DNA from: Candidatus Bathyarchaeota archaeon
GTDB lineage: Archaea; Thermoproteota; Bathyarchaeia; Bathyarchaeales; Bathycorpusculaceae
DNA: 64,000 nt
Direction of reading: 5' to 3'
Assembly: GCA_963707955.1 (NCBI GenBank)
Contig: OY970176.1
Span: forward strand, 800,001 to 864,000
The translations under genes and the position numbers were made by a program. The notes under the pieces were generated by a model that saw only the letters and a program-made list of their open reading frames with translations, was not told the DNA's origin and did not search any database. The number at the start of each line of letters is the position of its first letter. Within the stretch, counting starts at the first letter, position 1. Below, one piece after another: positions 7,967 through 63,234 of the stretch.

Positions 7967-8093
7967 GGGGTTTGCCGGTCATAGGGCGCGGGTCCCACCT
8001 GATCCCATACCGAACTCAGAAGTTAAACCGCGCTCCGTTTCTGGCTGTAATGTGGTCTTCGGCCATGTGAACCCGGAAAAGCTGGTAACCCCA
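7967..8093 (+). rRNA. rrf: 5S rRNA
   Basis: CACCTGATCCCATACCGAACTCAGAAGTTAAAC core; terminal helix GGGGTTTGCCGG/CTGGTAACCCC. Confidence 0.93.
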
Positions 8094-46852: not shown

Positions 46853-47171
46853 GGGCTGGCGAGTTGGTGTGTGGCTTTCGAGCCTCGACGTGAGAGGCTT
46901 GAGGAAACTCCGCCCACAAGTAGAGTTGCAGCGTCCGCAAGGGCGCAAGGTGAGAACCTTGGCTCCAGAGCAGAAACGAAACGTCCGCTCAGCAGGTGAC
47001 GGTGATGCATGCTAAGTTGTTGAGGATGCTGAGTGCGAAGCGATGAAACGGCTGTCCTGCATGTGGAAAGGGCAAGCAGACGCTGATGAAGAGTCTACCG
47101 GAAGCGCGGGTAGCCCGATTAGCCGAATGCCACAAAGAACAAAAGGCGGGTTACGACCAACACACCAGCCC
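46853..47171 (+). ncRNA. rnpB: RNase P RNA
   Basis: Conserved regions GAGGAAACTCC, GCAGAAAC, TGAAACGG, GGGCAAG, ACAAAAGGCGGGTTAC; P1 helix GGGCTGG/CCAGCCC; followed by T-tract. Confidence 0.93.
47147..47170 (+). repeat. att site 1 (3' end of rnpB)
   Basis: CGGGTTACGACCAACACACCAGCC, repeated at 53247 and 62470. Confidence 0.92.
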
Positions 47172-47224
47172 TTTTTTCCCGAATACCACAAAAAAATCCA
47201 AAGATTCAGAACGTCTTAATCCAA

Positions 47225-48073
47225 ATGCTAAAAGACAACAAGAGCGACTACACAATTAACTTCACAAGAAAAGCCCTAACATTCCTAAGCCAGCACACAA
47301 ACCTAGCAGAACCAGAGGCAGTAAAGCTGTTCATAGCAACGCACAAAGCCTCCGACGGATACAAACGGAACCTCTGCATAGCTTACAACAAGTACTGCAA
47401 GTTCTACAACATCAATTGGAATATGCCCAAGTACCGAGAAGAAGCTAAGAACATCGCCCTACCCACCAAAGAAAAAATACAAATGCTCATCGCAAGCGCA
47501 GGCAGACTTCTCTCAATGAAACTACAGCTGAGCATGGAAACAGGACTCAGGCCCGTAGAAATTGCAAGACTCAAAGTCAAAGACATAGACCTAGAACACA
47601 GAACTGCAAATCCGATAACAGCCAAGAGAGGCAACCCAAGAACCGTACCAATGTCACAGGGCTTAACACTGAAAATCCAAGAATACATAACAGCGAAGAA
47701 CCTTACACCATCCGACTTATTGTTCAAAGGACAAGACTCGGACCACTACGGCAAACACTACCGCATAATGCGGAACGAATTAGCTGAAAAACTCAAGGAC
47801 CCATCAATCCGAACAATACGACTATACGACCTCAGACACTACTTCTGCACAAAGAAACTAAACGACATCGGAAACCCCTACACTGTAATGGTTCTAATGG
47901 GACACACAAAACTAACAACGACCCAACGATACATGCACCTACTCAACTTCAACGACGACGAATGGACATGCACAGGAGCAACGACAGCCAAAGAAGCAAC
48001 CAAACTCATAGAAAACGGATTCCAATACGTAACAACAATCGAAGGAATACAACTATTCAAAAAACGAAAATAA
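47225..48073 (+). CDS. Tyrosine integrase (C-terminal part; frame open back through the att)
   Basis: TGLRPVE, AKRG, YDLRH, MGH, TTQRY catalytic motifs. Confidence 0.93.
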   Translation: MLKDNKSDYTINFTRKALTFLSQHTNLAEPEAVKLFIATHKASDGYKRNLCIAYNKYCKFYNINWNMPKYREEAKNIALPTKEKIQMLIASAGRLLSMKLQLSMETGLRPVEIARLKVKDIDLEHRTANPITAKRGNPRTVPMSQGLTLKIQEYITAKNLTPSDLLFKGQDSDHYGKHYRIMRNELAEKLKDPSIRTIRLYDLRHYFCTKKLNDIGNPYTVMVLMGHTKLTTTQRYMHLLNFNDDEWTCTGATTAKEATKLIENGFQYVTTIEGIQLFKKRK

Positions 48074-48168
48074 AACACAAACAACCCCCTTTTTCTATCC
48101 AACATCATGCTTAACCATAGCGCGCGCTGACCAGAAAATAAAAAACACACACGCACGAAGCGCACGCG

Positions 48169-48429
48169 CTATTCTTTGGCTTGATATACTTCATACAGCA
48201 TGTATACACCGATCAATTCAAACAATAGGCAGAAGACAAATATTATTGGGACAATTTCCCACATATCACGGGCAATAATGTATAGGATGTTACTGTTATC
48301 ATTAAAGCTCCTCCAGTAATCCAGCTTACTTTGCAGCACAACATTCAGTCCGATTCCCACAAAACCGAGAAGCATTATAATTACCGCTAATACCGTCTTG
48401 ATTAGCGCGCCAATATTGATCTTCTTCAT
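48169..48429 (-). CDS. Small membrane protein
   Basis: Two TM segments; stop TAG runs into CGCG. Confidence 0.6.
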   Translation of the reverse strand: MKKINIGALIKTVLAVIIMLLGFVGIGLNVVLQSKLDYWRSFNDNSNILYIIARDMWEIVPIIFVFCLLFELIGVYMLYEVYQAKE

Positions 48430-48533
48430 TTTTCGTTAGCTCTGACGAATAGAAATAGCTATGAAATTAGGACTTAATAAACCAGCGATGCCCATGTCCT
48501 TTAACTAACAGTATCCCGAAAACAAAAACATAT

Positions 48534-48581
48534 TGGCTCGTGAGCCTTTCGGCTCACTCGCACGTTCCAGACGATACGCCA
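48534..48581. repeat. 48-bp hairpin repeat, copy 1
   Basis: TGGCTCGTGAGCCTTTCGGCTCACTCGCACGTTCCAGACGATACGCCA. Confidence 0.9.
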
Positions 48582-48674
48582 AATAAAACCGATACTCTCA
48601 GGACCAACATCAATGCGCACAGAGAAATGAATGCGGTTATGTATATGCGTTTACGTTAAAGACTTCACGCCGAG

Positions 48675-50006
48675 TCAAAAACGTGAGCTTTGGCTCGAAG
48701 CATCCATCAATCGGTCAATGCATGTTCTAGTTTTGTAAAGATGTACAATATTCGGAGTAACGCCTGCAAGTGCAACCTCCCATCCAACAGCTTCTTCCCT
48801 CAGCCATTTGCTCACTGAATTTCGATAATGCTTTGGAACGATAAAACAATCCCAAGCTTTTTGAGGAGCATTAATGTATTTCTCCGCCGCTCCTTCCAAT
48901 AGCATCTTTATGGCGCCTGCATTTGTTCGCAGAACGTCGCTTGTAGCGTACACTAATTTGGTTCTCCTAGTTGACCTCGCAATCAACTTTTCCACTTGAC
49001 GATTATATTCCTCAATCGAATTCTGCAGGCTAATGAGAGAGCCACCCTTAGAGGAAGCTTCTGAAACTATTTGCCCAAATATACTTCTCATTGCATTGGT
49101 TGTTCTCGAATCAAAGATGTCGCTGTATTCAGATATTGGCAAGTTCTCAGAATAAGCGATACGAAGTTTTCTCTCGATGAATTCAAGCACATAAGGGTCA
49201 AATGTTTTCAGAGATTCTGTTCTAAGTGGAGCCTCAAGATTCTCAATTTCCCCTATGTACCGACACCCTATATTTGTGGAGAAAGTTGAATTGAACGCTT
49301 TTGCCAGAAGGAATCTTGGAATCATAGCCAACCTATTGGCAAGAATATTAATGTATTCTCTCGGACTACCCTCGTTAGCTAACTTCACCAGTTGTCCTAC
49401 AAATTCTGCTGTGGGCCTTATGCTCGCGCAAAGACGAGTATAACTCGCATACCGATATACGGGAACATTAATCTTCTCCATCTCCTCGCGCTCTTTCTTC
49501 TCTTCTTCGTTTTCTGTCGCAAGAGAAAGCTTTTTGACAAGGTCAGTTCCACTTTTGTAGTCAACTCCAACGGATTCAGCAGTCTTCAATGCTAGCAAGT
49601 CCGACTGCGCACCAGCCAAGAGCAAATTTACATTATTATCAACGAGTTCTTGAATCACTTCCGACATTTGTTTTAAACACCCGAAGCAATCTACATCGAT
49701 AAAGGGCACAAGCCTTCCCTTCTGTGCCAGCGCAACCACCTCTTCAAACGTCAACCCTGTCTCATCTCTAAAACGGTCAACTTTCTCAATTTTCGGCAAA
49801 CCAACAACTAACGTGTCGTATAGAGGTAGCAAACTGGTCGTCGGGACACATTGCACATCAGGCAAGAACACGCTAGTACCCTTCGGAGGCTCAAAACCAA
49901 TAATGTCCTTGACCCGCAAATTGGAGTAATCTTGTTTTTTCAGATGCTCATCGGAGTAGCTTAAGACATCTTCAATGTATCTAGTCCCTCTCTCAGCAGA
50001 AGACAT
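48675..50006 (-). CDS. Hypothetical cargo protein (443 aa)
   Basis: Long ORF; no family recognised. Confidence 0.7.
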   Translation of the reverse strand: MSSAERGTRYIEDVLSYSDEHLKKQDYSNLRVKDIIGFEPPKGTSVFLPDVQCVPTTSLLPLYDTLVVGLPKIEKVDRFRDETGLTFEEVVALAQKGRLVPFIDVDCFGCLKQMSEVIQELVDNNVNLLLAGAQSDLLALKTAESVGVDYKSGTDLVKKLSLATENEEEKKEREEMEKINVPVYRYASYTRLCASIRPTAEFVGQLVKLANEGSPREYINILANRLAMIPRFLLAKAFNSTFSTNIGCRYIGEIENLEAPLRTESLKTFDPYVLEFIERKLRIAYSENLPISEYSDIFDSRTTNAMRSIFGQIVSEASSKGGSLISLQNSIEEYNRQVEKLIARSTRRTKLVYATSDVLRTNAGAIKMLLEGAAEKYINAPQKAWDCFIVPKHYRNSVSKWLREEAVGWEVALAGVTPNIVHLYKTRTCIDRLMDASSQSSRF

Positions 50007-50108
50007 TTCAAGTCATCAATAGTAAATGGACATCCAAGATTTAACTGCTTTCGCACATGCTTGCCACGGAAGCCTTAGCGCGCGCTATTGGCAACATCTA
50101 GACCGCAT

Positions 50109-50324
50109 CTAATTCGGTACAATGCCCTTCCGCTTCAATCTAGGACACTCGAAGGCAACATGCTCACCGCCGCCTTTAACAATAGAGCCAAACTCAATCA
50201 TTGAACAAGACGGCGCACCCATAACCCAAACACCGTCGCACACCTTCCCATCATAAGGGCAAATCGCTTCAGGACGCAGATTCTTAAGTAGCTTACGCTC
50301 GCTAGACAAAACAATCACCTCCAC
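50109..50324 (-). CDS. Small Cys-containing protein downstream of rep
   Basis: CPYDGKVC...C...CPRL; co-oriented and closely spaced with rep. Confidence 0.55.
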   Translation of the reverse strand: MEVIVLSSERKLLKNLRPEAICPYDGKVCDGVWVMGAPSCSMIEFGSIVKGGGEHVAFECPRLKRKGIVPN

Positions 50325-50329
50325 CGCAG

Positions 50330-51521
50330 CTAATCAGTCTTAACCCCTCCACTCTTGTCAACATAATTGGGCTTACCTAACTGGTCAAATTCAGGCTCAA
50401 GCCAAGCAGGTCTATAACCAATCATCCCAGTATCCTTAACATTATAATGCGTACCAATCTGAAACACACTTTCCATATCTTCATCACAGATAGCGCAGAT
50501 TAGCGAGTTCGCCAAAATATGAAACTACAGAAGCATGCTTTAGGCCGACCTGAACCAAGCAGTGATGAAGTTCGTACCACAGCGTCCCGTAAATGGACTC
50601 TCTCTTGTCCTTCACACTAACCAGAATCTTGTCAATTTCATAATTTCGCATTTCCCGACCACGAAAACCAGAACATGCCAAGCAATCCTCCTTACTATGA
50701 AAATCGCATAAACGGCACATGTCGTAACCGTTTTTGACATAAGAAACCGTATGAAAATGCGGGCTATACTCTTGACGAGTGTGCGACTCATTCACACGCC
50801 ACCCATGCGGAATAATCACGCCTCCAACAACCCCCCTAATAGCCAGCGCATCCAAAGCCATAGCCTTCAGCTTCGGAATAGGAATGTTGAAACAATTCGG
50901 CAAAAAGGAAACGATAGTATGTTCGGGACAAAACAGGCCATGCTTCTCAGCAGTCTTGATCCGAGCCTCAATAGAACGTGCCGCACGACACGCAAAACCA
51001 TTCAAACAACACTTCGGGCATAACGGACTATGACACCACCAATGCTTGTGCCTAATCAAAATCTTGTCAGTAGCATCCTCACCACGAAACATCTTACCCT
51101 TATGCCCTTCCACATTTTTGCAAGCCGAATACCCATGATGAGAAGCACAAAAATTAGGATTAGTAACAGCACCAAAAGTGGCAGGCACATAAGCAGGAAA
51201 AGGCGCATGCTCATAAGGCAAATAATGATGCGGATTATCCCCCAACCGACGATTTATCCGTAATCGATTCTCTAAAAAACGAGCTGCACGCGACCTCTCT
51301 GCATCAGTAACCTTAACCTTAGACCCAGAAGGTAAGTCATTCTCAACAGCCTTCCAATGTTCCGCCTCTTCAGCGACCTTGTAATTATTGAATCGCAAAT
51401 ATTCAGGACAGTTGAAGCATCTCATCATAATACTAAACAATACAAATTTGCGGTGAGGGCATGGAACACTATCCCAAAAACCACAAAAGAAAGGACGACC
51501 CCGTGTAGTCACATTATCCAT
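50330..51521 (-). CDS. HUH-superfamily rolling-circle Rep-like protein, probably frameshifted near 50500
   Basis: C..P.CP.C Zn motif, HTIVS (motif I-like), GGVIIPH, SPHFH (HUH), Y-ELHH (motif III-like); CAIC-containing tail in ORF 50330..50515. Confidence 0.7.
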
Positions 51522-51649
51522 ATTTTAAACACCGAGAACAACCTTGCATCAAAAAGGTTCAAATTTTCCAACGATTTTGCGACAAGAATGGCAAACACAA
51601 TAAAACCCATAAATTCTAGAATTACGGTAAATACAGAACTGGAATTAAC

Positions 51650-52264
51650 ATGGATAGAAAAGTGAACAAATACTTTGTTACAATTCCCATATTCGACTCG
51701 CAAACGGCAAAGCTACTTGCACCAGAGACAAACTGGAAAATCCTAGAAGCCCTGAGAGATGTTGGAATGGAAGGTTTGTCGGCTGAAGAAATCTCGGAAA
51801 AAATCAAAGTGCCGATATCTTCTGTCTACAACATCTTGAGAACTTTGGAAGCAACTGGTTGGGTACAGAGCACTATGAAACGACCGCCTTGGGGTCGCCC
51901 CTCAAAGAAAATTAAACAACGCTTTGGCGGAAAACCGACAAGAGTTTTCATAGAAACCGTTCCGTGGGGTTTGAATGAACTTGATTATGATTTTATTGAT
52001 AGCCTTATTCCCGTTCTGAAAGATATGAAAAACAACGTGGATGAGCTCAGGGAAAAATGGTTGTCAATTTTGGAAAAGATAGTTTTGACGTACCAAGCAA
52101 ACAACCTGAAGAAATTCTTTCCCCAAGAACCGATAGACAGTGAATGCGGACATAGTCGCGAAGGATTAGAGTTCCTCCGCGCCATCAGCACTGAATTAGT
52201 TTGGGAAATATTGAATGGCAAAGACTTCGATGCGCTGGCAAGAAAACACAAATTCATGAAGTAA
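51650..52264 (+). CDS. Winged-HTH (ArsR/TrmB-like) regulator
   Basis: WKILEAL...SAEEISEKIKVPISSVYNILRTLEATGWV; divergent from rep. Confidence 0.8.
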   Translation: MDRKVNKYFVTIPIFDSQTAKLLAPETNWKILEALRDVGMEGLSAEEISEKIKVPISSVYNILRTLEATGWVQSTMKRPPWGRPSKKIKQRFGGKPTRVFIETVPWGLNELDYDFIDSLIPVLKDMKNNVDELREKWLSILEKIVLTYQANNLKKFFPQEPIDSECGHSREGLEFLRAISTELVWEILNGKDFDALARKHKFMK

Positions 52265-52448
52265 TCGCGCGAGTCTCAGTCTCACCAGAAGCAACGCATC
52301 CAACGGGTACGCAAATGAACGATAAACGAAGAAATAATAGGAACACGCTCAATGAATGGACCCATTGCTAATCGCTAGTTACGACTCAAATGAGTGAAGA
52401 ACGCGAGAACGATCTCCTCGGCGCGCGCGATGCAAACTCCTCAAAAGT

Positions 52449-52661
52449 CTAAGAGTCTTGACCTCGAAGATAATTCCTTCCAAAATAGAACCCAGCAAGA
52501 CTGATGACTAGAAAGAAAATCCCAAGTAACAGAACATATTTGCCTTGATCCGCAAAATCAGATTCCCGCATGGTCATCATGCCCCATCCCAAGAGAACTG
52601 AACCAAAACCTGCAACAAGCAGGCCCAACAGTATCAGCTTTATCAAAGTGCCACCTATCAC
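52449..52661 (-). CDS. Small membrane protein
   Basis: Two TM segments; GGGAGG SD upstream. Confidence 0.6.
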   Translation of the reverse strand: MIGGTLIKLILLGLLVAGFGSVLLGWGMMTMRESDFADQGKYVLLLGIFFLVISLAGFYFGRNYLRGQDS

Positions 52662-52790
52662 TGTGCTGTCCTCCCAACCTGTTCGGTCTTCCCCTCAATC
52701 CATACTTACACCAATCAAGAAGAACATCAGAGGTTGAATTTTAGACTTTCGTCTCAACAAGCGCGTGCCGAAAAAACCAGTCCGCTCATG

Positions 52791-52926
52791 TCCTCGGAGA
52801 CATAAGCCTTCCCCTCATTTGAAAAAGAGGAAAAGTTAGAAGGCATCTCATACGGAAGCCAATCTTAAAACTATGCATGAGCTTCCTATTAGCATCTTGT
52901 TGTGAAGGCATATTGTCTCCTCGTCC
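52791..52926. repeat. Conserved 136-nt structured non-coding element, copy A
   Basis: 5 differences from the copy at 62123-62258; terminal inverted repeat GGAGACATAAGCCTTC/GAAGGCATATTGTCTCC. Confidence 0.85.
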
Positions 52927-53072
52927 CCAAACGACGAAAAGATGAAGGTTCATGAAATAGAAATCGGAGATGCGGAAATGAAAACCCTTAAACGAACCCA
53001 AGAAGAAATTCGATACGCCCAATTATGGGCAGAAATAGAGGTCCCAAAAAGTCTAAAAGGAGTAGAAGGCCA

Positions 53073-53270
53073 ATGAGCAAAGAAAGTCAGAACCCAAGCC
53101 AGCCGCCAGCCAGCGAGCGAGTAAGCCAGCAGGCCAGTCAGCCTCATGCCATAGCCCTCAACGGTGAAAAACAAAGCCCGAATCAACCAGTAAACAATAA
53201 ACAAACACAAAAAACAGAAGATAAAGAAAATTATAATGGATTAGGACGGGTTACGACCAACACGCCAGCC
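53073..53270 (+). other. Integrase N-terminal segment (intN) reading into att 2
   Basis: MSKESQNPSQ...GLGRVTTNTPA reads the att in the same frame that leads into the integrase at 47225. Confidence 0.65.
53247..53270 (+). repeat. att site 2
   Basis: CGGGTTACGACCAACACGCCAGCC. Confidence 0.92.
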
Positions 53271-53338
53271 CTTTACACCTGTACACCGCCCTTTTGCAGA
53301 AATCGACATCAAAACGCGGTTCTGAGAGGTGAAGACTG

Positions 53339-54286
53339 ATGACGTACAGAAACACCTCAATCAGACCCGTAATAACACCAACCACACTCGAAAAACAATT
53401 AATCCCTAACAATACATCAATCCTGAACGTACTAATTCAAATGAAAAACGACAACAAGAGCGACTACACAATAAACTTCACCAGAAAAGCACTGAACCTC
53501 CTGGCAAAACATACGAGCCTCGCGGAACCTGAAGCAGTGAAGCACTTCATAGCACAACACCGAGTGTCAGACGGATACAAAAGAAACCTCTGCATAGCTT
53601 ACAACAAATACTGCAAATACTACAAAATAGAATGGCAAATGCCACAGTATCTCGAAGAAGCCAAGAATATCAAACTACCAACAAGAGAAAAACTACTCAT
53701 GTTAGTAGCCAAAACCAAAGTCCCATTGTCAATCAAACTGAGGCTGAGTATGGAAACAGGATTACGGCCCGTCGAACTATGCAGACTAAGAGTTAACGAC
53801 TTGGATTTAGACCACAGAACAGTCAACCCAACAACCGCCAAGAAAGGTAATCCGAGAACACTGCCAATTTCGCAATCACTCACAGAATCATTAATTGAAT
53901 GGATAGGCAAGAAACGACTAAAACCAACCGACAAAATATTCAAAGGAAAAGCCGACGATTACGGCAAACACTATCGAATCATGCGAAACAAACTTGCAGA
54001 AGACATTAAAGACCCATCAATACGCATGATCAGGCTATACGACTTCAGACACTATTTTTGCACCAAGAAACTAAACGACATCGGAAATCCTTACACTGTA
54101 ATGGTCTTGATGGGACACAAAAAACTTGAAACCACGCAAAGATACATGCCCCTACTGAATCTAAACGACGATGAATGGACATGCACAGGAGCAACAACTG
54201 CGCAAGAAGCTATGAAACTAATAGAAGCAGGCTATCAATATGTCACAACAATCGAAGGAATACAGCTGTTCAAAAGAAGAAAATAG
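53339..54286 (+). CDS. Tyrosine integrase (paralog of 47225..48073)
   Basis: TGLRPVE, AKKG, YDFRH, MGH, TTQRY; GAGGTGA SD. Confidence 0.93.
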   Translation: MTYRNTSIRPVITPTTLEKQLIPNNTSILNVLIQMKNDNKSDYTINFTRKALNLLAKHTSLAEPEAVKHFIAQHRVSDGYKRNLCIAYNKYCKYYKIEWQMPQYLEEAKNIKLPTREKLLMLVAKTKVPLSIKLRLSMETGLRPVELCRLRVNDLDLDHRTVNPTTAKKGNPRTLPISQSLTESLIEWIGKKRLKPTDKIFKGKADDYGKHYRIMRNKLAEDIKDPSIRMIRLYDFRHYFCTKKLNDIGNPYTVMVLMGHKKLETTQRYMPLLNLNDDEWTCTGATTAQEAMKLIEAGYQYVTTIEGIQLFKRRK

Positions 54287-54383
54287 ACACAAATGACACC
54301 TCTTTTTTTCTTTCACCAGTCAATCAGTAACTTATCGCGCACGCCAAGGAAAAAGAAGGGAATTGATAGAAGATGAGGTGATT

Positions 54384-54699
54384 CTATTTGGCTTTTTTAA
54401 GCATTGCTACAACTTCTTTGTTCTTCAGGACAATCTTGGTTTCCATTGTGTTGAATGAGAGCCATTCCATCAATTTTGGCTCCATTTGCAGTTTTTGCAT
54501 AGCATCAAAGTCGCCTTCTAAGACCATATAGACTAGGTGCTCTGGGAAGTCAGTCCATGAGACCGAGCATCTTTACTCCATGCTTCTTCGTCAAACTCTC
54601 CATCTTATCAAAGAGTTCCAGAGTACTCTTTCGGTGTTTCTCACTGAACGCAGGGCAATTCTCAGGGGCATGCTTGTTTATCCACATGAATACTGGCAT
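54384..54699 (-). pseudogene. Small ferredoxin-like fold (DUF3303/GYD-like) protein with 1-nt frameshift near 54560
   Basis: MPVFMWINKHAPENCP...KKHGVKMLG continues as SWTDFPEHLVYMVLEG...KKAK in another frame. Confidence 0.6.
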
Positions 54700-54808
54700 T
54701 TTGATACACTCAGATAATCTGCTCCGTTCTTTTGGAAATATAAGCCTTTGCAGAGTGACCACAATGCAAACATCAAAAACCTCTCTTTTATTCAAGCAAA
54801 ATTCGTCT

Positions 54809-54856
54809 TGGCTCGTGAGCCTTTCGGCTCACTCGCACGTTCCAGACGATTCGCCA
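54809..54856. repeat. 48-bp hairpin repeat, copy 2
   Basis: One substitution relative to copy 1. Confidence 0.9.
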
Positions 54857-55245
54857 CGAAGACTAATACCTTTCGTTTCTGCTTGGAACATTCCACGACA
54901 AGTTCGAGTATTAATATAAGTCGCTCTCTACGCACTATGCGTTCAGCGGCAGAAGGAGTGCTCTTTTATTTGAATGAGGAAGAGCTGAAGAAAATCTGGT
55001 GGAACATCCTTCAGAAGAAAGGATGTTCAATCCAAGAAGTTGAAATAGGATCTAGGAGATATTTGACGACAAATTACAGGCGAACAGAGCCTGTAGGCTC
55101 AAGTGAAGCGCGCGCGCTAAAGACCTGAACGAATTTATCCCAGACATATCAAGCTGAATTACTAGCTGAACGTTTTGCTATCGCCCATGGAAGTTGGTTG
55201 GGGCAAAGTCTTATGAAAAACCCCGAGGCTGACTAAAACTCAAGC

Positions 55246-56502
55246 TTAGCACTTAGGAATCTGTTCGTACAAACCCAACGTTTTTGCAGCGATCTTATCC
55301 CAAGTAAACTCGTTCAGAACCCTCTTTCTACCGTTCTTTCCAAGCCACTTTTTCTTGTCAGCATTTTCCAAAACGCTGTTTATTCCCCATGCTATGTCCG
55401 ACGGATTATTAGGATCTATGTGATAACCACATTGCTCATCTCCGCAACAGACAACGATTTCACGCATCCCACTTATACCCGCAGCTCCAACAACAACAGG
55501 TCGTTCCATCGCCATGGCTTCAAGAACAACTATTCCGAAGGGCTCATAGAAACTTGGGAAAACTGCAACGTCACATGCAGCATAATGAAGAATACGTTCT
55601 TCCTCGGGAATGAATTCGAACCTGAACTTCACGAAATCACTCATCTTCGTAGCTTTCACCAGATTCATCAAGTATTCCTGCAAGTCGCCAAGACCAACGA
55701 TAACAAGCTTCGCCTTAGGATTCTTCTGCAAAACATGCGGCAAAGCCATAATCAGTTTATCAACACCTTTCATACCGGCGAGTCGACCTATAAAAAGAAT
55801 CATTTCCTCATCGTCCTTCACGTCATACATAGCTCTGATCTTTTTGACTTGATCAGGAGTCACCGTGCTCGGATTGTACTTGTCAGGGTCGACACCGTTA
55901 TAGGAAACCTGGATTTTCTCCTTCGGAAAACCAAGTCCAACCAACTCATCCTTCATAGCATAAGAAACTGTCACGATAAGGTCGGCCACTCGAGCGGCGT
56001 GAAGTTCAATGTTGCTGAGAGTGACCGAACCGTTCCCAAGAGTTCTTCCCTTTTCGGTTGAATGAACATGAAAAGCGAATGGCATTCCAACCTCCCTTTT
56101 CACAGTCATCCCTCCTATGGCAGAAAGCCAGTCATGAGCGACCACTATGTCATACTTGATATCTTCTTTCCTGATCAGTTCATTAACCAGCTTCGACGCA
56201 CTCAAATAATTATAGACAAAAATTTTAGAGAAAAATTGTATTCCTTTCCCCATTCCCCACTTCCTTATGTCTTCTGCAACAACGTCAGGCAGAGAATCGG
56301 AAATGTCAATGGGCAACGGACGGTGAATCTCGATACCGCGCCAAATCTCCCGTGTCGGCAAGCTACCGGCGTCATCATTCATCGTAAACACAGTCACATC
56401 ATTGTCGTCCAAAACAAACTTCCGAGTAATCTCCGCAGCGTAGGTGCCTAATCCCCCAACAATCTTAGGAGGGTATTCCCAAACAAGAACCGCCAACTTC
56501 AT
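55246..56502 (-). CDS. Glycosyltransferase family 4 (glycogen synthase-like)
   Basis: WEYPP..VGGLG, AHDW, HSTE, FIGRL..KG, EPFGIVVLEAM. Confidence 0.92.
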   Translation of the reverse strand: MKLAVLVWEYPPKIVGGLGTYAAEITRKFVLDDNDVTVFTMNDDAGSLPTREIWRGIEIHRPLPIDISDSLPDVVAEDIRKWGMGKGIQFFSKIFVYNYLSASKLVNELIRKEDIKYDIVVAHDWLSAIGGMTVKREVGMPFAFHVHSTEKGRTLGNGSVTLSNIELHAARVADLIVTVSYAMKDELVGLGFPKEKIQVSYNGVDPDKYNPSTVTPDQVKKIRAMYDVKDDEEMILFIGRLAGMKGVDKLIMALPHVLQKNPKAKLVIVGLGDLQEYLMNLVKATKMSDFVKFRFEFIPEEERILHYAACDVAVFPSFYEPFGIVVLEAMAMERPVVVGAAGISGMREIVVCCGDEQCGYHIDPNNPSDIAWGINSVLENADKKKWLGKNGRKRVLNEFTWDKIAAKTLGLYEQIPKC

Positions 56503-56739
56503 TTTTTCACCATCGCGAGTCGATCGATGGCTTCTAACTGATACAAAACTTTACCTTATTTACTTTCCTCACTCAACATACACCTGTTCTGACGATCATA
56601 AAGCAGATTTCATTTCCTAGCGCGCGCGCAATTGCTATAGCGTACGTATAAGAAAAGTTAAGAATAAGTTAAGAATCACTCCGCGCGCAGAATATCCTAC
56701 CAACAGCTTGACCGCGATAGTAGCGCGCTCGCTCGCTCG

Positions 56740-56764
56740 CTCGCACGTTCCAGACGATACGCCA
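56740..56764. repeat. 48-bp repeat, truncated copy 3
   Basis: CTCGCACGTTCCAGACGATACGCCA preceded by TAGCGCG and a (CTCG)n stutter. Confidence 0.8.
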
Positions 56765-56856
56765 AAACAGACATTCTCAATTAATTCGCGTTTTTCAAAT
56801 TATACAAAAAGTCTTTTATTCGAGACTACTCGTAACCTTCAAACTGAGGACCGATA

Positions 56857-57330
56857 ATGAAAACTCTGGTACTTTATTACACCCGAACTGGAAACACGAA
56901 ATTCGTCGCCGAAACTATTGCGGCAGAACTTGGAGCTGACATGGAAGAAGTCATAGACTTGAAGAAACGCCAAGGCACACTCGGCTGGCTATCAGCTGGC
57001 AGAGACGCCATGGGTGCAAAAGAAACCGAAATTGCCCAAACAAAAAGAATTCCAACTGACTACGACCTCATAATCATCGGACAACCCGTCTGGGCTCGAA
57101 ATCCGACGCCAGCAATCAGAACATACCTGAACAAGAATGACTTGTCGGGGAAGAAAGTGGCGTTGTTCCTCTCCGATATCAATCTGGGTCAAACCGTCGA
57201 GAAGACCAAAGCGTTAATGTCGAACTCCACCTTAGTCGGCGAGTTAGTCTTATCAGCGAAAGAATTAGAGAACAAGGAAGAGACAAAAAAGAAAATCGCT
57301 GAATGGTGCAACACACTCCAAATAGTGTAA
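56857..57330 (+). CDS. Flavodoxin
   Basis: YYTRTGNT, YDLIIIGQPVW, LSGKKVALF. Confidence 0.9.
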   Translation: MKTLVLYYTRTGNTKFVAETIAAELGADMEEVIDLKKRQGTLGWLSAGRDAMGAKETEIAQTKRIPTDYDLIIIGQPVWARNPTPAIRTYLNKNDLSGKKVALFLSDINLGQTVEKTKALMSNSTLVGELVLSAKELENKEETKKKIAEWCNTLQIV

Positions 57331-57408
57331 TATGCTCAGTGCGCGCGCGCTCAAAAAACCGACACAGATCGCTCGATAAAACTCTAGCTCCACACACTGA
57401 AACTACTG

Positions 57409-57912
57409 TCAGATTATCTCTTTTGCCATGGTTATTCGTTCTGGTTTGTATCCAGTTCTGCTGTAAAGCTTTATTGCAGAGTCATTTGTCGCTGATACCG
57501 AAAGAGCAATTCTGGAATGCCCCTTCCTTCTACAATAATCTTCCGCCTTTTCCAAAAGCAACTTCCCGATTCCCTTGCCTCTGAATTCCTCTTCAACAAA
57601 AATGTCATAAATATAACCGAAGGTCAGCTTAGTAATCTGGCCTCTGATTTGTCCAACGATCAAGTGTCCAACGTACTTATGATGTTCATCCTCTGCGACA
57701 AAGACCTCGGTATTTTCTTCCTTCAAGATATTCTCATAATCTTCAATCACATTCATGTTCCATTTCTCTCTATCGAGAAGCTTTTTCTGCGTTTCAGGGA
57801 TGTATTCCCACGAGTTTTCAACAAACATTTTCTTCACTAAGGATATGTCAGTTGCTTTTGCTTTCCTTAATTGAATGTTCATCAACATCATCCTTTTCGC
57901 GCCAGATGTCAA
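57409..57912 (-). CDS. GNAT acetyltransferase (copy 1)
   Basis: FRGKGIGK.LL, N.SAIKLY..GY; near-identical to 59940..60431. Confidence 0.9.
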   Translation of the reverse strand: MTSGAKRMMLMNIQLRKAKATDISLVKKMFVENSWEYIPETQKKLLDREKWNMNVIEDYENILKEENTEVFVAEDEHHKYVGHLIVGQIRGQITKLTFGYIYDIFVEEEFRGKGIGKLLLEKAEDYCRRKGHSRIALSVSATNDSAIKLYSRTGYKPERITMAKEII

Positions 57913-57953
57913 GTTCGATTCAAGTCTCCTTTAATATTTTGTGTAGCGCGCGT

Positions 57954-58043
57954 GACAGCGAAAGAAGCAACCAAACTTGTAGAAGCAGGATTCCAACACG
58001 TCACAACAATCGAAGGAATACAACTATTCAAAAACGCAAGTAA
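57954..58043 (+). pseudogene. Integrase 3' fragment
   Basis: TAKEATKLVEAGFQHVTTIEGIQLFK matches the C-terminal tail of both integrases. Confidence 0.85.
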
Positions 58044-58115
58044 CCAACAACCTCCCTCCTTTTTTAATGTGGAAAACATATTTACTCATGAGAGTAGCGT
58101 GCGCGGGTAATACTC

Positions 58116-58565
58116 ATGAATGAGGATGATTTGTCATTCCAAATATGCAAGCTGCCTGAAGATTCCAAGTCTGTAGAAGAAGGCTTTCGAACAATTCGAG
58201 ACGGTCTCAGGAGAAATATTACTGACAAAACCAGCAACGTCGAACCACCAAGAACAATCGCGATATTGATCCGAGACAAAAGGAACTGCATCGTGGGAGG
58301 AGTAATAGGTTATGCCATGGGAGGATGGCTACTTGTCGATCTTCTATGGGTCGAGGAATCACTCAGGAACAAGGGCTACGGCACCAAACTTCTCAAAATG
58401 GTTGAAAACGAAGCAGCAAAGCTCGGATGCAAATACGCTCACCTAGAAACTTTCAGCTTTGAAGCACGACCATTCTACGAGAAGCACGGCTACACACTTT
58501 TTGCAACGCTTGGCAATTACCCAGAAGGGCACAGTAAACATTTCCTAAAGAAAAAACTGGCATGA
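58116..58565 (+). CDS. GNAT acetyltransferase
   Basis: LWV...RNKGYG, TFSFEARPFYEKHGY. Confidence 0.9.
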   Translation: MNEDDLSFQICKLPEDSKSVEEGFRTIRDGLRRNITDKTSNVEPPRTIAILIRDKRNCIVGGVIGYAMGGWLLVDLLWVEESLRNKGYGTKLLKMVENEAAKLGCKYAHLETFSFEARPFYEKHGYTLFATLGNYPEGHSKHFLKKKLA

Positions 58566-58596
58566 GAGTGCACTTGTTCTATATACTGTCGATCGA

Positions 58597-58644
58597 TAGC
58601 TCGTGAGCCTTCCGGCTCACTCGAACGTTCCAGACGATACGCCA
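58597..58644. repeat. 48-bp hairpin repeat, copy 4
   Basis: Loop TTCC instead of TTTC; stem intact. Confidence 0.88.
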
Positions 58645-58765
58645 AAGCCAAAACACAAAGCGCGCGCTTGAAGCACCAAGATCCAAAACCTGTAAGCGGA
58701 GCCTCTTCTAGAATTCGAAAATTATTAAAGCACTATTACGCATATCATACCTTCTGGGAACATAA

Positions 58766-58858
58766 ATGCCGAAAAAAGAAAAACCGTTAACTAAGAAAGA
58801 GCGAGACGAGAAAAGGAAGAAACATAAGGAAAAGCAAAGCAAAACACAGACTTCTTAA
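58766..58858 (+). CDS. 30-aa basic micro-protein
   Basis: MPKKEKPLTKKERDEKRKKHKEKQSKTQTS; TATA-like TTATTAAA upstream. Confidence 0.45.
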   Translation: MPKKEKPLTKKERDEKRKKHKEKQSKTQTS

Positions 58859-59230
58859 GCCCCAAGAAAGAACTTTGCAAAACTCTTTTTCTCTTTTTAC
58901 CATAAAGTTGGCTTCTTTAATGAAATGAAAGAAAGACGCGTCAGCTTTGGATATTATTGGCTTCCTCCATTAATGCGAAAGAAATATGTTTTAGCTTGTT
59001 TATTTATCGTTAATTTGTAGCTGAGATTTATGCCGAGTGTAATGAAACGTAAACAAAAGAATACTCAAATCGCACAACAGAAAAAGATAGAACGGGATAA
59101 AGAAGCGAAAAAGAAACAGTTGAGACAGCAACTTCCTGCCAAGGGCAAGAAACGTTAAAGCCACTAAAGGAGCTATGGTAACCATCTAGAGCGCGCGCCT
59201 AGAAGACAACAATACAGCGCGCGCTGCTTA

Positions 59231-59752
59231 TCATCCGAACAGGTCCAAGAAGGGGGTAAGCAAATGTTTCGTAACGAAGTTTTCATTCACCAACTCGCCA
59301 TCTTCAGCATTTAGACCGTTACAGGAAGGAATTAGCTTAAGCGTGAAGGAGTTCGGACTGACTCTCTCAAAGTCGAACGGGTACAATCTGCAGCGAGCTG
59401 GCCTAGAATTGTAAATCGGACACTCGTAAGACCCTCTCCTTGGACTGGATTTTAGGAGAATACACCATCCATCTTTGTTGTTTTTCAAGTTTCCAACCAT
59501 CATAGGCAAGCGCTTGAACTTCGGATCCACTGTTGTCTCCAAAAAGTCTTCCAATCTGTGTCCCGTTTTTTTTGCCCGCTCCATATCGCTCTTGATGAGT
59601 ATTGGTCCCCCAAGTTTGCAGCAGAAGACTGCACATCGTTTACACCTGAAACGAAGATCATCATGATAAAAAGTCATCCTCAAAATTCGTTTAGCTTTGG
59701 GATCCAAGATGACTTCTGCAATGTTTTCGTTCAAGTTCTTGCCCTTGCCCAA
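59231..59752 (-). CDS. YkgJ family Cys-cluster protein
   Basis: CKRCAVFCC, C..L, CPIY..RP..CRLYPF. Confidence 0.88.
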   Translation of the reverse strand: MGKGKNLNENIAEVILDPKAKRILRMTFYHDDLRFRCKRCAVFCCKLGGPILIKSDMERAKKTGHRLEDFLETTVDPKFKRLPMMVGNLKNNKDGWCILLKSSPRRGSYECPIYNSRPARCRLYPFDFERVSPNSFTLKLIPSCNGLNAEDGELVNENFVTKHLLTPFLDLFG

Positions 59753-59835
59753 ACAGCTCGCTTTTTGGAGTGTTTAAAGCTTATGTTCTAGCGGGCGCAA
59801 ATAACGACAATCCTTTTTTCCCACAAAAACCATCT

Positions 59836-59880
59836 TGGCTCGTGAGCCTTTCGGCTCACTCGCACGTTCCAGACGATACG
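59836..59880. repeat. 48-bp hairpin repeat, copy 5
   Basis: Identical to copy 1 over 45 nt. Confidence 0.9.
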
Positions 59881-59939
59881 TTCAAAGAACCGACACAGAT
59901 CGCTCGATAAAACTCTAGCTCCACACACTGAAACTACTG

Positions 59940-60431
59940 TCAGATTATCTCTTTTGCCATGGTTATTCGTTCTGGTTTGTATCCAGTTCTGCTGTAAAGC
60001 TTTATTGCGGAGTCATTTGTCGCTGATACCGAAAGAGCAATTCTGGAATGCCCCTTCCTTCTACAATAATCTTCCGCCTTTTCCAAAAGCAACTTTCCGA
60101 CTCCCTTGCCTCTGAATTCCTCTTCAACAAATATATCGAAAACATAACCGAAGTTCAGCCCAGTAATCTGGCCTCTGGTTTGTCCAACGATCAAGTGTCC
60201 AACATACTTATGGTGTTCATCCTCTGCGATAAAGACCTCACTATTTTCTTCCTTCAAGATATTCTCATAATCCTCAATCACATGCATATTCCATTTCTCT
60301 CTATCGAGAAGCTTCTTCTGCGTTTCAGGGATATATTCCCACCCTGTTTCAACAGCCATTTTCTTCACTAATGGCATGTCAGTTGCTTTTGCTTTCCTTA
60401 AGTGAATGTTCATCATCATCATCATCATCAC
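59940..60431 (-). CDS. GNAT acetyltransferase (copy 2)
   Basis: Duplicate of 57409..57912; begins GTG(ATG)6. Confidence 0.9.
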   Translation of the reverse strand: MMMMMMMNIHLRKAKATDMPLVKKMAVETGWEYIPETQKKLLDREKWNMHVIEDYENILKEENSEVFIAEDEHHKYVGHLIVGQTRGQITGLNFGYVFDIFVEEEFRGKGVGKLLLEKAEDYCRRKGHSRIALSVSATNDSAIKLYSRTGYKPERITMAKEII

Positions 60432-60548
60432 CTTTTCGCGCCAGATGTCAAGTTTGATTCAAGTCTCCTTTAATATTTTGTGTAGCGCGCGAAACATCAA
60501 ACGCTGAAAACTAAAATAATAAAAAAATGGAAACTAACCGCGCGCGCG

Positions 60549-60591
60549 AACAACAATCGAAGGAATACAACTATTCAGAAAACGCAAATAG
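60549..60591 (+). pseudogene. Integrase 3' fragment
   Basis: TTIEGIQLFRKRK-stop followed by the same CCCC-TTTT terminator-like tract seen after the intact integrases. Confidence 0.8.
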
Positions 60592-60645
60592 CCACAACCC
60601 CCATTTTTTTATTTCGAAATAGAAGGAAAGAAACTGCCTGAGAAA

Positions 60646-61005
60646 TTGAGACTGTTGAAATTTGACGAAAAAGAATACTACAGCAGACTATCTGAAAAGC
60701 AACTAGAGGAAGCGATAGAAAAAGACTTGAACACCGTTTTGACCCAGAACCTGTTTGAGCTAAAAACATTCATCAATTACGATCTAAAACTAGGCAAGCA
60801 TGAAAATGATGCTGTATTCTGGAATTTTGTTGGAAACCCCCTTTATAGAATGCTTGAAAAAAGCATTGTAGAGAACTGCCGCAATAGTGAAAGATACAGA
60901 AAGAAGCTCATTTATAGAATGGATAACCTCATAAATGAACTTAGACCAGACTGGGCGCTTTTCATGGAAAGAGAAGAAAGAAGAAAGAAGCAACCCAAGA
61001 AATAG
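60646..61005 (+). CDS. Hypothetical protein
   Basis: 119-aa ORF directly after the integrase remnant. Confidence 0.55.
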   Translation: MRLLKFDEKEYYSRLSEKQLEEAIEKDLNTVLTQNLFELKTFINYDLKLGKHENDAVFWNFVGNPLYRMLEKSIVENCRNSERYRKKLIYRMDNLINELRPDWALFMEREERRKKQPKK

Positions 61006-61081
61006 TCTTTCAAGAAATCGTATTCTTCCTCAAGATAGCATCAAAAATTTTACCGTACAGTTTTGTCAGTAACGCGCGCGC

Positions 61082-61133
61082 GAATGGCAAAGACTTCGAT
61101 GAACTGGCAAGAAGACACAAATTCATGAAGTAA
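61082..61133 (+). pseudogene. 3' fragment of the wHTH regulator
   Basis: NGKDFDELARRHKFMK-stop versus NGKDFDALARKHKFMK-stop at the end of 51650..52264. Confidence 0.85.
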
Positions 61134-61149
61134 GCCCGTAGCGGGCGCG

Positions 61150-62019
61150 CTAGATCGCAACCGTTGCCGAGTAAATTTCAGATGCTATTTCGATTGCTTT
61201 TTCCCACTCTCTCTTTCTGAGGTTCTCCACCGCTTCTGTTACCAGTGCACATGTCTTCTTGCGTATATCGTCATTGCTTGTTCTTCTTTCCACAACATTG
61301 CGGGCAATGCATACAGATTCAATTGCTACTTTCGCCAAGACAAACTTGTCGATGTCATATCTTTCAGATACCACCGCGCTCAGATTGAAATCTGATAGAT
61401 GCCTTTTGATTCGAGGAATTCCAGATGCCAAAACGTAAGCAAAGACAACAACAAGAATATAGTAAGCTGCAACTACCAAGGAATTCTGCAAAAGAGTAAG
61501 TGTGGGAATTGCTGATACATTCGGAAATCCCTGAGCAGAATAGAGCCAAATTCCGTAAACAATAGGCACGAAGACTCCGACTACGCATGAGAAAATTCCG
61601 ACACCGCGCGCATTTATCAGATTTATCAATCGCCAACTATAGTCAATTAACCCTTGATCCCCACTTTCATTCACAAAGAGGTTTATTATGTGCACACTAG
61701 ATGTGTTCTTCTTCACATCCTCTGCCATTTGCTGATTCATCTTCTTCGTGTGCGAATCTACAAACTCAGCCACTAGTTCTACGCACTGGTCGCGTACTCC
61801 CAGCCTCCCTTTCTGTGCCCAAATCTTGCCGTATATTGTTCTAACGTACCCTTGATAGATAACAAAGCCAACAGGTATCACAGACGCAATTATGAAGGTT
61901 ATCGCCCGAGTGTCGAACGTACTGGTTTTTCCGACCATTATTAAAAACAACAGAATAAAAAAGAAGGCAAAAAAACCTGGAATGGAATAATACAGCAAAG
62001 TCTCGTTCTCAGTCTTCAC
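61150..62019 (-). CDS. Hypothetical multi-TM protein
   Basis: Four hydrophobic segments, YSIPG motif; stop TAG runs into CGCGC. Confidence 0.7.
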   Translation of the reverse strand: MKTENETLLYYSIPGFFAFFFILLFLIMVGKTSTFDTRAITFIIASVIPVGFVIYQGYVRTIYGKIWAQKGRLGVRDQCVELVAEFVDSHTKKMNQQMAEDVKKNTSSVHIINLFVNESGDQGLIDYSWRLINLINARGVGIFSCVVGVFVPIVYGIWLYSAQGFPNVSAIPTLTLLQNSLVVAAYYILVVVFAYVLASGIPRIKRHLSDFNLSAVVSERYDIDKFVLAKVAIESVCIARNVVERRTSNDDIRKKTCALVTEAVENLRKREWEKAIEIASEIYSATVAI

Positions 62020-62122
62020 ATCCCTTCACTACCAAGGTGCTATTCTTGTTGCCTGATTACTTAAAACAGTGCCGAAAAAGAGTGGCTACATCAATCAGCC
62101 AAGATAGAGTCAGGCGCTCCTC

Positions 62123-62258
62123 TCCTCGGAGACATAAGCCTTCCCCTCATTTGAAAAAGAGGAAAAGTTAGAAAGCATCTCATACGGAAGCCAATCTTAA
62201 AACTATGCGGAAGCTTCCTATTAGCATCTTGTTATGAAGGCATATTGTCTCCTCGTCC
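62123..62258. repeat. Conserved 136-nt structured non-coding element, copy B
   Basis: Near-identical to 52791-52926 and likewise upstream of an att. Confidence 0.85.
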
Positions 62259-62469
62259 ACAAAAACGACGGAATCATGAAGGTCAATGAAAGAATATCGG
62301 AGATATGAAGATGAGAACCCTTAAAAGAACCCCAGAAAAAATAGGAGACGGGAAGCTAGGGCAGAAATCGAGCTCCCAAAATTTTTAGGAGACGAAAAAT
62401 GATGAGCCAAGAAAAGACGGAACCACAAACACAGAAGACAACAATTTCAAAGATTACTAAGGCTATAGA

Positions 62470-62493
62470 CGGGTTACGACCAACACGCCAGCC
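62470..62493 (+). repeat. att site 3
   Basis: CGGGTTACGACCAACACGCCAGCC. Confidence 0.92.
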
Positions 62494-62589
62494 TTTTCTC
62501 AGAACCCGCCTCCTGATATCAACACACAGAACGGAAAACTCATAGAATACATGCTATATCTACAAAGAGCAGGATTCAGCGAAGCTTAG
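62470..62589 (+). pseudogene. Probable truncated start of a third integrase
   Basis: The att frame reads RVTTNTPAFSQNPPPDINTQNGKLIEYMLYLQRAGFSEA-stop, resembling an integrase N-terminal helix. Confidence 0.5.
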
Positions 62590-63163: not shown

Positions 63164-63234
63164 ACTCCTTGAGCGCGCGCTATTCTACCGAAAGTAATAA
63201 ATCCTATAATAGAAAAATACAGCGAGTGATAAAA

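Follow-up and report, generated by a model that had tools for sequence, protein, structure and literature searches.

The 3' end of rnpB, the gene for the archaeal RNase P RNA, very probably serves as the insertion site of two site-specific integrative elements of 6.1 and 9.2 kb that lie in tandem in a Bathyarchaeia archaeon. The elements were found in a 64,000-nucleotide (nt) stretch of DNA, hereafter the window (Candidatus Bathyarchaeota archaeon, GenBank assembly GCA_963707955.1, contig OY970176.1, positions 800,001 to 864,000 of the forward strand), and coordinates refer to the window unless otherwise stated. An earlier note on this stretch had described repeats of the rnpB 3' end beside integrase genes and proposed a family of integrative elements specialised on rnpB. 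The gene and the three copies of its end, treated here as attachment (att) sites, are as follows.

46853-47174, plus strand: rnpB with P1 extension and T-run (RF00373 match at 46859-47165, 187.4 bits, model positions 1-288; computed P1 pairing)
47147-47174, plus strand: att copy 1 (attL), within rnpB, with an A at 47164 that gives a C:A mismatch in P1 (pattern search, alignment, P1 pairing)
53247-53274, plus strand: att copy 2, the junction of elements 1 and 2 (pattern search, alignment)
62470-62497, plus strand: att copy 3 (attR), the distal end of the array, in which the P1-pairing G is kept (pattern search, alignment, P1 pairing)

The pattern CGGGTTACGACCAACACRCCAGCC occurs on the plus strand at 47147, 53247 and 62470 and had no match in 100 shuffles, bearing out the earlier observation of two further copies, at 53247 and 62470, of 24 nt from the rnpB 3' end. 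The genome, one contig of 2,346,764 bases, contains no other copy of the 24-nt pattern with up to three mismatches allowed. When aligned, the copies have about 28 nt in common, CGGGTTACGACCAACAC[A/G]CCAGCC[C/T]TTT, with two variable positions and a sharp left edge, and their spacings of 6100 bp and 9223 bp agree with the element lengths first proposed. The repeat spans the last 19 positions of the RF00373 model and additional P1 pairs outside it, a span that we take, from the structure of RNase P RNA, to be the 3' strands of P4 and P1. rnpB itself is a single-copy gene, full length as judged by Rfam and intact despite the insertion. GC content drops from approximately 0.52 to 0.41-0.46 exactly where rnpB ends, the genome mean being 0.479. 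There is no tRNA or tmRNA gene in the 64-kb window, and the target is therefore not of the classical tRNA/tmRNA type.

Tyrosine integrase genes follow the first two copies, beginning 55 nt past att copy 1 and 65 nt past att copy 2.

47225-48073, plus strand: Int1, Xer-like tyrosine integrase of 282 amino acids (aa), frame open back to att copy 1 (PF00589, E=2e-21; NF040815, 87.5 bits against a cutoff of 220)
53339-54286, plus strand: Int2, tyrosine integrase of 315 aa with its own conserved N-terminal start, common to P0010, P0047, P0053 and P0075 (PF00589, E=4e-22)

Pfam assigns PF00589 only. In NCBIfam and PDB the closest relatives are XerA, XerC and IntI, with XerA and an integron integrase as the best solved relatives, and by sequence both integrases are Xer-like. 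Neither belongs to the closest equivalog families, as the two proteins score 87.5 and 74.5 bits against the cutoff of 220 for XerA (NF040815), and 48.7 and 43.7 bits against the cutoff of 265 for the integron integrase (TIGR02249). An integrase or integrase-like start had initially been placed after each of the three copies; this holds for copies 1 and 2 on the basis of PF00589, but copy 3 is followed by a fragment of Cas1, as described below.

To determine the distribution of this arrangement, one genome per species was scanned by integrase similarity, the protein collection holding 906 relatives of the integrase. The scan returned 13 loci (L005-L017), all from Bathyarchaeota/Bathyarchaeia. 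In 10 of them rnpB is located upstream in the same orientation, and in eight it ends 50-180 nt before the integrase match; at least two copies of the rnpB end are present in eight, with three in L006 and two orphan copies in L015, where no rnpB is in view. In L016, rnpB is followed by an integrase, an integrase remnant, a second copy of the rnpB end and a second integrase. Tandem arrays recur in L006, L007, L015 and L016, and also in genome G124. In L009, L012 and L016 the copies match the rnpB variant of their own host, indicating that the duplications were made in place. N-terminal extensions resembling a translated rnpB 3' end, in the att+1 or att+2 frame, occur in 6 of 14 aligned homologs (P0012, P0059, P0007, P0052, P0033 and P0049); our reading is that these are probably gene calls running back into the adjacent rnpB.

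The class was also surveyed in an even sample of 151 genomes; rnpB was detected in 99 of these, and 47 gave an integrase match at E<=1e-20. Seven genomes (G000, G118, G077, G136, G112, G116 and G092), from families f1, f4, f5 and f18, have a co-oriented integrase no more than 100 nt past the 3' end of rnpB. The duplicated rnpB ends beside integrases that the earlier note had suggested looking for are present in other Bathyarchaeia, and its concern that homologous integrases might never lie beside rnpB is contradicted by 10 of the 13 loci and by these seven genomes. Identity between genomes amounts to 66-75% in the host flanks, 80-87% over the stretch from rnpB to the integrase and 98% in one cargo module; the greater likeness of the element stretches argues for recent movement between species. 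Among 13 rnpB loci of the same family, an AAA-kinase gene is conserved upstream in 10 and the gene o124 in 9, with no conservation on the downstream side.

Several further loci from these searches bear on the history of the site. Two loci of the same family, L068 (G086:C7) and L071 (G008:C33), have no intact integrase at rnpB and carry a diverged second copy of the rnpB end approximately 4.2-4.3 kb downstream, together with a 60-aa integrase tail in L068; these copies may be decayed att duplicates of fossil elements. In G124 (C6:65212-111954; L058-L060), 46.7 kb separate the copies of the rnpB end; GC is low over this whole distance and an integrase lies only 1.6 kb before the distal copy, so that the region could be either a very long array or one large element. 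Lastly, a G145 contig (C11; L061) stops 7 nt past rnpB, and for many integrase matches a contig end lies 100-180 nt away. Short-read assemblies probably break at the att repeats, and linkage of rnpB and integrase is therefore likely to be undercounted.

To place these integrases relative to one another, a tree was built from 49 Bathyarchaeia integrases, and flanks were fetched for the 40 best survey hits and annotated for RNA genes. Rows with internal stops (L012, L026 and L043), matches shorter than 225 residues and duplicate contigs (L018 and L021) were left out of the tree. A single clade of 19 integrases, with a Shimodaira-Hasegawa-like approximate likelihood ratio test (SH-aLRT) support of 97, takes in all 13 rnpB-adjacent genes. 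Four other members lie behind orphan copies of the rnpB 3' end, one of them on another contig of G136 and behind that genome's own variant. The clade integrase of G124 has a degenerate copy with a 1-nt deletion approximately 50 nt before it, and a good copy is present 46.7 kb past rnpB. Of the 30 integrases that fall outside the clade, 16 lie at tRNA 3' ends (two of these on weak tRNA matches) and none lies near rnpB. The integrases placed next to the clade are co-oriented with genes for tRNA-Thr and tRNA-Gln, and the rnpB clade is nested among tRNA-linked integrases. The simplest reading of this tree would be a single switch of target from tRNA genes to rnpB, and the proposed family of rnpB-specialised elements gains support from its members falling into one clade.

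Based on these data, we propose that each element would arrive as a circle carrying, beside its Xer-like integrase gene, an attP of approximately 24-28 nt identical to the rnpB 3' end, and that recombination between attP and the end of rnpB would insert the element. The att copy of the element, together with its own T-run, would then become the new 3' end of rnpB, and the original end would be displaced downstream as a non-functional copy. As the whole end of rnpB would be rebuilt, the site would be usable again, which would give rise to arrays. The integrase clade would have switched from tRNA genes to rnpB, and element 2 would be a mosaic of cargo and remnants of further elements, rearranged through internal repeats. 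The repeats, the integrases, the association of the clade with its target, the host-specific variants of the repeat and the intact rnpB are directly observed; we infer that a circle existed, that it recombined with strand exchange on the 5' side of position 47164, in which order the elements came and how they replicate.

The P1 helix provides a point of comparison for this scheme. In the cmscan alignment C46860 and A47164 form a non-standard pair, and 47164 is one of the variable positions of the repeat. The working rnpB carries the A, and thus the C:A mismatch, in the window, L005 and L006, and the pairing G is retained in the displaced copies. The pair in L016 is U.G in the working rnpB and U-A in the displaced copy. 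A TTTTTT run follows att copy 1. These variants fit an rnpB terminus that would be supplied by the element through strand exchange 5' of 47164, single mutations in each lineage being a possible alternative. In many loci a TAAGGCTA-like motif is also found 4-12 nt before the orphan copies, in any reading frame; being kept regardless of frame, it appears to act at the DNA level and is a candidate integrase-binding site on the element arm. No att-to-att joint was seen in the assembled contigs of runs X1-X4 (one study), which are blind to rare junctions, and this result is neutral with regard to activity.

An alternative, which we regard as unlikely, is that the Int1-type integrase is of the 'suicidal' kind known from SSV (Sulfolobus spindle-shaped virus), in which attP lies inside the reading frame and integration splits the gene. 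The N-terminal piece would then be 53025-53246 and the C-terminal piece 47171-48073, with the full gene present in the circle only. The frame in question is the following.

53025-53339, plus strand: open reading frame (ORF) through att copy 2, a possible N-terminal integrase piece if integration splits the gene (reading frames)

This ORF reads through copy 2, and the same frame leads from copy 1 into Int1. In 4 of 10 simulated circles (element 1 of the window, L005, L009 and L016) a single ORF with an upstream ATG crosses att, and the two ends are in matching frames, including cases such as L009 in which the frame stands differently to att. All nine scored Int1-type genes and, by eye, four others have an integrase frame that stays open back to att; however, the DNA is T-poor and off-frames are open as well (12 of 18). 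The residues 'ILNVLIQ' upstream of the called ATG vary conservatively, and the Met itself is replaced in L016. The database protein P0121 joins, in one frame, an N-terminal piece 74% identical to that of the window, the att-encoded residues RVTTNTPA and an integrase body, but this body is 56% identical and its C-terminus is scrambled, as at a tandem junction. Moreover, the putative N-terminal piece of L005 is unrelated to that of the window, yet the integrase bodies are 86% identical, and the TAAGGCTA motif before att is conserved irrespective of frame. The kinship with XerA, XerC and integron integrases and the conserved start of the Int2-type genes likewise speak against a split gene.

Under the preferred reading of two elements inserted by Xer-like integrases, element 1 extends from 47171 to 53246 and carries, behind Int1, a hairpin repeat, two larger proteins and a regulator.

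48530-48583, plus strand: hairpin repeat copy 1, with a 7-bp stem (GTGAGCC/GGCTCAC) and a conserved 3' tail
48675-50006, minus strand: 443-aa cargo protein without family (no Pfam, PHROGs or NCBIfam match)
50484-51521, minus strand: 345-aa candidate HUH rolling-circle replication initiator, a conserved backbone gene
51650-52264, plus strand: winged-helix transcription regulator, 204 aa (PF01978, E=4e-8)
52783-52931, plus strand: right-end block of element 1 (family D7, 95% identical to 62115-62263)

Besides the integrase, the 345-aa protein is the sole gene common to related elements (L006, L009, L012 and L013). It has 305 relatives at E<=0.001, and in 40 aligned members of the family H255 and H257 (within HFH), Y316 and two Cys clusters are invariant. 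HUH endonucleases are characterised by a His-hydrophobic-His metal motif and a downstream catalytic Tyr, and we take the H255/H257/Y316 pattern to be this motif. Rep_1 clusters are among the language-model neighbours of the protein. Scores against the Rep_1 profile (PF01446) are below the gathering threshold, the best being 17.3 against 33.2 bits for the L012 homolog, with none of the 40 members reaching E<=0.01, and a profile search of the family against PDB sequences gave no match. The predicted structure (predicted local distance difference test score, pLDDT, of 83.5) has a non-significant best PDB match at E=0.11 to generic ferredoxin-like folds; against a viral library the best E is 3e-5 at a template modeling (TM) score of approximately 0.3, the one named match being a putative replication protein. 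Taken together, the protein is probably a rolling-circle Rep.

For the 443-aa protein, atlas matches comprise only unnamed clusters with low recognition. In PHROGs the 204-aa regulator gave weak matches to transcription regulators, and the other nine cargo ORFs gave none. Element 1 looks whole, with an integrase, a candidate rolling-circle Rep and a regulator.

Element 2 (53271-62469) is more composite. Behind Int2 it holds a glycosyltransferase of family GT4, a flavodoxin, three GNAT genes, a CxxCxxCC protein and a 289-aa hydrophobic ORF, as well as two integrase tails, one regulator tail and four copies of the hairpin.

54805-54858, plus strand: hairpin repeat copy 2
55246-56502, minus strand: GT4 glycosyltransferase, cargo (PF00534, E=4e-39)
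56735-56766, plus strand: hairpin repeat copy 3, 3' part only, stem lost
56857-57330, plus strand: flavodoxin-like protein, cargo (PF12682, E=5e-12)
57409-57912, minus strand: GNAT acetyltransferase a (PF00583, E=1e-20)
57954-58044, plus strand: integrase 3' tail remnant, beginning right behind a (GC)n tract (family D8, 90% identical to 47983-48063)
58116-58565, plus strand: GNAT acetyltransferase b (PF00583, E=2e-12)
58593-58646, plus strand: hairpin repeat copy 4
58668-59196, no strand assigned: (GC)n-bounded module, 98% identical in L005 and L008
59231-59752, minus strand: CxxCxxCC-domain protein, cargo (PF03692, E=5.5e-10)
59832-59885, plus strand: hairpin repeat copy 5
59940-60431, minus strand: GNAT acetyltransferase c, a paralog of a (PF00583, E=9e-20; family D1, 95%)
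60550-60591, plus strand: second integrase 3' tail remnant, right behind a (GC)n tract (family D5)
61082-61138, plus strand: remnant of a regulator-gene 3' end, right behind a (GC)n tract (family D13, 91% identical to 52213-52269)
61150-62019, minus strand: 289-aa ORF with long hydrophobic stretches, possibly a membrane protein (no Pfam, PHROGs or NCBIfam match)
62115-62263, plus strand: right-end block of element 2 (family D7)

The integrase tails first noted at 57954 and 60549 were recovered at 57954 and 60550 (families D8 and D5), and all five copies of the element-linked repeat stand. This hairpin, with its 7-bp stem, variable loop and conserved tail, occurs nowhere else in the genome, all five copies lying on the plus strand of the rnpB island, and it recurs in the arrays of L005, L007, L008, L015 and L017. 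A role as the origin for Rep was set aside, since the Rep homologs are found in L006, L009, L012 and L013 and the hairpin in those five other loci. The hairpin tail bears some likeness to a nick-site consensus.

A second kind of repeat, palindromic (GC)n tracts of GCGCGCG or longer, is present at 14 sites in the island (48120, 50078, 52421, 55108, 56620, 57341, 57946, 58660, 59191, 59217, 60485, 60540, 61074 and 63173), against approximately 3.9 expected from 545 sites in the genome, where other 20-kb bins are also rich in them. The tracts occupy nearly all intergenic gaps of the island, and all three gene remnants begin directly behind one. Clusters of tracts are present in the arrays of L005, L007, L008, L009, L015 and L017 and absent in L006 and L012. 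A 0.5-kb module at 58668-59196 is 98% identical to L005:12449-12977 and L008:15074-15587, with host genes approximately 70% identical, which suggests that the module was recently exchanged. It is bounded by (GC)n on both sides in the window and L008 and on the right side in L005. The module contains small K-rich ORFs on the plus strand and a 61-aa ORF on the minus strand, none with a family; the latter ('o61c', 59000-59185) is probably not a gene, as conservation is at the nucleotide level and the K-rich ORFs lie on the opposite strand. In contigs from sister samples, the Int1 tail is joined to the tail at 57998 with both sides perfect, 48532 is joined to 54808 through the hairpin, and sequences diverge at (GC)n sites. 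As these contigs are possibly strain variants or assembly paths, they are hints only of rearrangement through the repeats.

We also observed relatives of the GT4 gene elsewhere. A gene of the same family and architecture, possibly a paralog, lies at L004:8865-10115, in the chromosome 8 kb past the array, and a homolog with 76% identity lies at L014:8655-9878, directly upstream of the L014 integrase, which has no rnpB link.

The repeats raise a further alternative, namely that the rnpB locus is a gene-capture platform, an archaeal analogue of the integron, in which hairpin- or (GC)n-bounded modules are inserted, exchanged, deleted and moved between the arrays of different species by the Xer-like integrase, the HUH Rep or another route. 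The confinement of the hairpin to the island and to related arrays, the excess of (GC)n tracts in the gaps with all three remnants starting at one, the near-identical (GC)n-bounded module in two other species and the variant contigs that diverge or join at these repeats would all be in keeping with such a platform. Yet no recombinase could be tied to the hairpin or (GC)n sites, the tracts are common genome-wide and missing from two arrays, and the hairpin and the Rep homologs do not co-occur across loci. The joints in contigs can be explained by assembly path choices or other strains, and homologous recombination between related tandem elements accounts for most of them. We therefore consider a capture platform quite improbable, and return to two elements in tandem as the preferred reading.

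Beyond att copy 3 the sequence contains the following features.

62597-63163, plus strand: C-terminal fragment of Cas1, outside the array (PF01867, profile positions 151-279 of 283; TIGR00287, 93 bits)
63133-63963, plus strand: 276-aa ORF with hydrophobic N- and C-terminal stretches, chromosomal flank (homolog past the array of L007)

A third element starting at copy 3 was ruled out, as the Cas1 fragment follows and integrase homology was not found there: tblastn with Int1 gave nothing past 62493, and alignment of this region to Int2-type leaders revealed patchy similarity only. A casposon at this position was likewise rejected, the N-terminal half of Cas1 being absent in every frame. A homolog of the 63133-63963 ORF lies just past the L007 array, marking this ORF as chromosomal flank, and with the Cas1 fragment and then chromosomal flank behind copy 3, the array ends at that copy. 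Genes for a VTT-domain protein, a response regulator, TATA-binding protein (TBP) and an OB-fold protein resembling single-stranded DNA-binding protein (SSB) lie farther downstream.

Cas1 C-terminal fragments are not confined to this position. Approximately ten are scattered across the genome, 55-86% identical to the one behind att copy 3, including those at window positions 62597-63163 and 6801-6866 and, on contig C1, near 2258793, 206076, 2026633, 77172, 2272424, 393360 and 2295584; they may be remnants of casposon-like or CRISPR-linked elements. TBP-like genes apparently number at least four, found by blastn with the TBP regions of relatives near 838.8-841.1 kb (window, approximately 38.8-41.1 kb), 872.2, 695.0 and 1416.5 kb of C1, and an apparent rearrangement of TBP and SSB was dropped once blastn revealed these several paralogs. 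A 5S rRNA gene lies at 7971-8090 (RF00001, 70 bits), with no other rRNA match in the window.

Two weaker explanations concern the repeats themselves. It is highly improbable that the integrase belongs to the host as a resident recombinase whose synteny with rnpB is conserved, the repeats being local duplications that have nothing to do with mobility. Co-orientation and a distance of 50-180 nt to rnpB are indeed very regular, but the linkage is found in only 7 of 99 rnpB-bearing genomes, and 13 genomes of the same family have rnpB without the integrase. GC also drops by approximately 9 points, the cargo differs between genomes, the integrase is more conserved than the host flanks, and the XerA score is far under its cutoff. 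Misassembly, a general risk of metagenome assemblies that the earlier note had named as its own refutation, has a negligible chance of accounting for the repeats, as a repeat of 24-28 nt is not long enough to lead an assembler astray, the three att junctions are each crossed by separate Logan contigs of run X1 (these not being independent if X1 is the source sample, as is possible), a contig from a second sample, X2, crosses copy 2, and the architecture recurs in independent genomes.

Set against the reading of two integrated elements are several observations. L014 is the lone member of the integrase clade without a visible link to rnpB. No episomal relative that would represent a free replicon was found in IMG/VR viral contigs or in phage or plasmid records, the last two yielding no integrases other than bacterial ones at <=34% identity and no match to the Rep candidate, and no circular or empty-site junction was seen in the contigs of X1-X4. 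No replication gene was found in element 2, which is possibly no longer a unit. Of the further decayed insertions initially proposed, the remnants themselves stand, but shuffling of modules within element 2 could equally have produced them, and the third element, part of the earlier form of this reading, gave way to the C-terminal part of Cas1. In addition, the loci were chosen by integrase similarity and the genomes are related, and the counts thus overstate the number of independent events. As the downstream DNA is not conserved among relatives, a clean empty site is not alignable.

It is textbook knowledge that site-specific elements integrate at the 3' ends of genes for tRNA and tmRNA. As in islands of that kind, the integrase here lies beside att, part of the 3' end of an RNA gene is duplicated as direct repeats, the target is rebuilt whole and the site is re-used in tandem; the target, however, is rnpB, a single-copy ribozyme gene. 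Integrons, including those reported from archaea, consist of a tyrosine recombinase and a row of cassettes. The array resembles them in having a tyrosine recombinase followed by small cargo modules (GNATs and others) separated by a repeated imperfect hairpin, but differs in that the integrase scores under the integron cutoff, the repeats are on the integrase strand and 3' to the gene, and the whole is bounded by rnpB att repeats.

Among described archaeal systems, a 2021 review of tyrosine recombinases gives tRNA genes, intergenic regions and protein-coding genes as targets in its accessible part, where 'RNase P', 'rnpB' and 'Bathyarchaeota' do not occur (PMC8371274). The available part of a survey of integrated mobile genetic elements in Thaumarchaeota lists 39 integrations in tRNA genes, 15 in intergenic regions and 14 in the 3' ends of protein genes, with none in rnpB (Krupovic et al. 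2019, PMC6563490). As far as that part describes them, the cryptic integrated elements of Thaumarchaeota are, like those described here, small, integrase-bearing, composed mostly of unknown genes and found in tandem, one having a rolling-circle initiator, but their host lineage and targets are different (PMC6563490). The suicidal SSV-type integrases, as presented in the accessible portions of two sources, share with some elements here a frame that reads through att and lengthens in a simulated circle; in contrast, the integrases here are Xer-like by sequence, the putative N-terminal pieces are not conserved among close relatives and the integrated Int2-type genes are whole (PMC7253208, PMC8371274). 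Consistent with the earlier impression that rnpB-specialised elements were undescribed, no report of rnpB as an attachment site was found in the literature searched, subscription journals and supplements lying outside it. Papers with matching terms, in their accessible parts, use rnpB as a marker or list it among RNA genes, and two Bathyarchaeia papers mention integrases and, in those parts, name no target. The mechanism is ordinary; it is the target and the dedicated integrase clade that are new.

These results extend the rule of integration into RNA genes to another conserved structured RNA and would provide a natural case of a target switch in which tRNA genes gave way to rnpB. An essential ribozyme would have its end rewritten by the element, including a P1 mismatch in three genomes, with a possible cost or regulatory effect. 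In practical terms, rnpB offers a landmark for locating mobile elements in Bathyarchaeia genomes and may account for contig breaks nearby. To our knowledge the lineage has no genetic system, and the pair of integrase and 24-28 nt site is a candidate tool for targeted insertion of DNA into one defined, single-copy locus.

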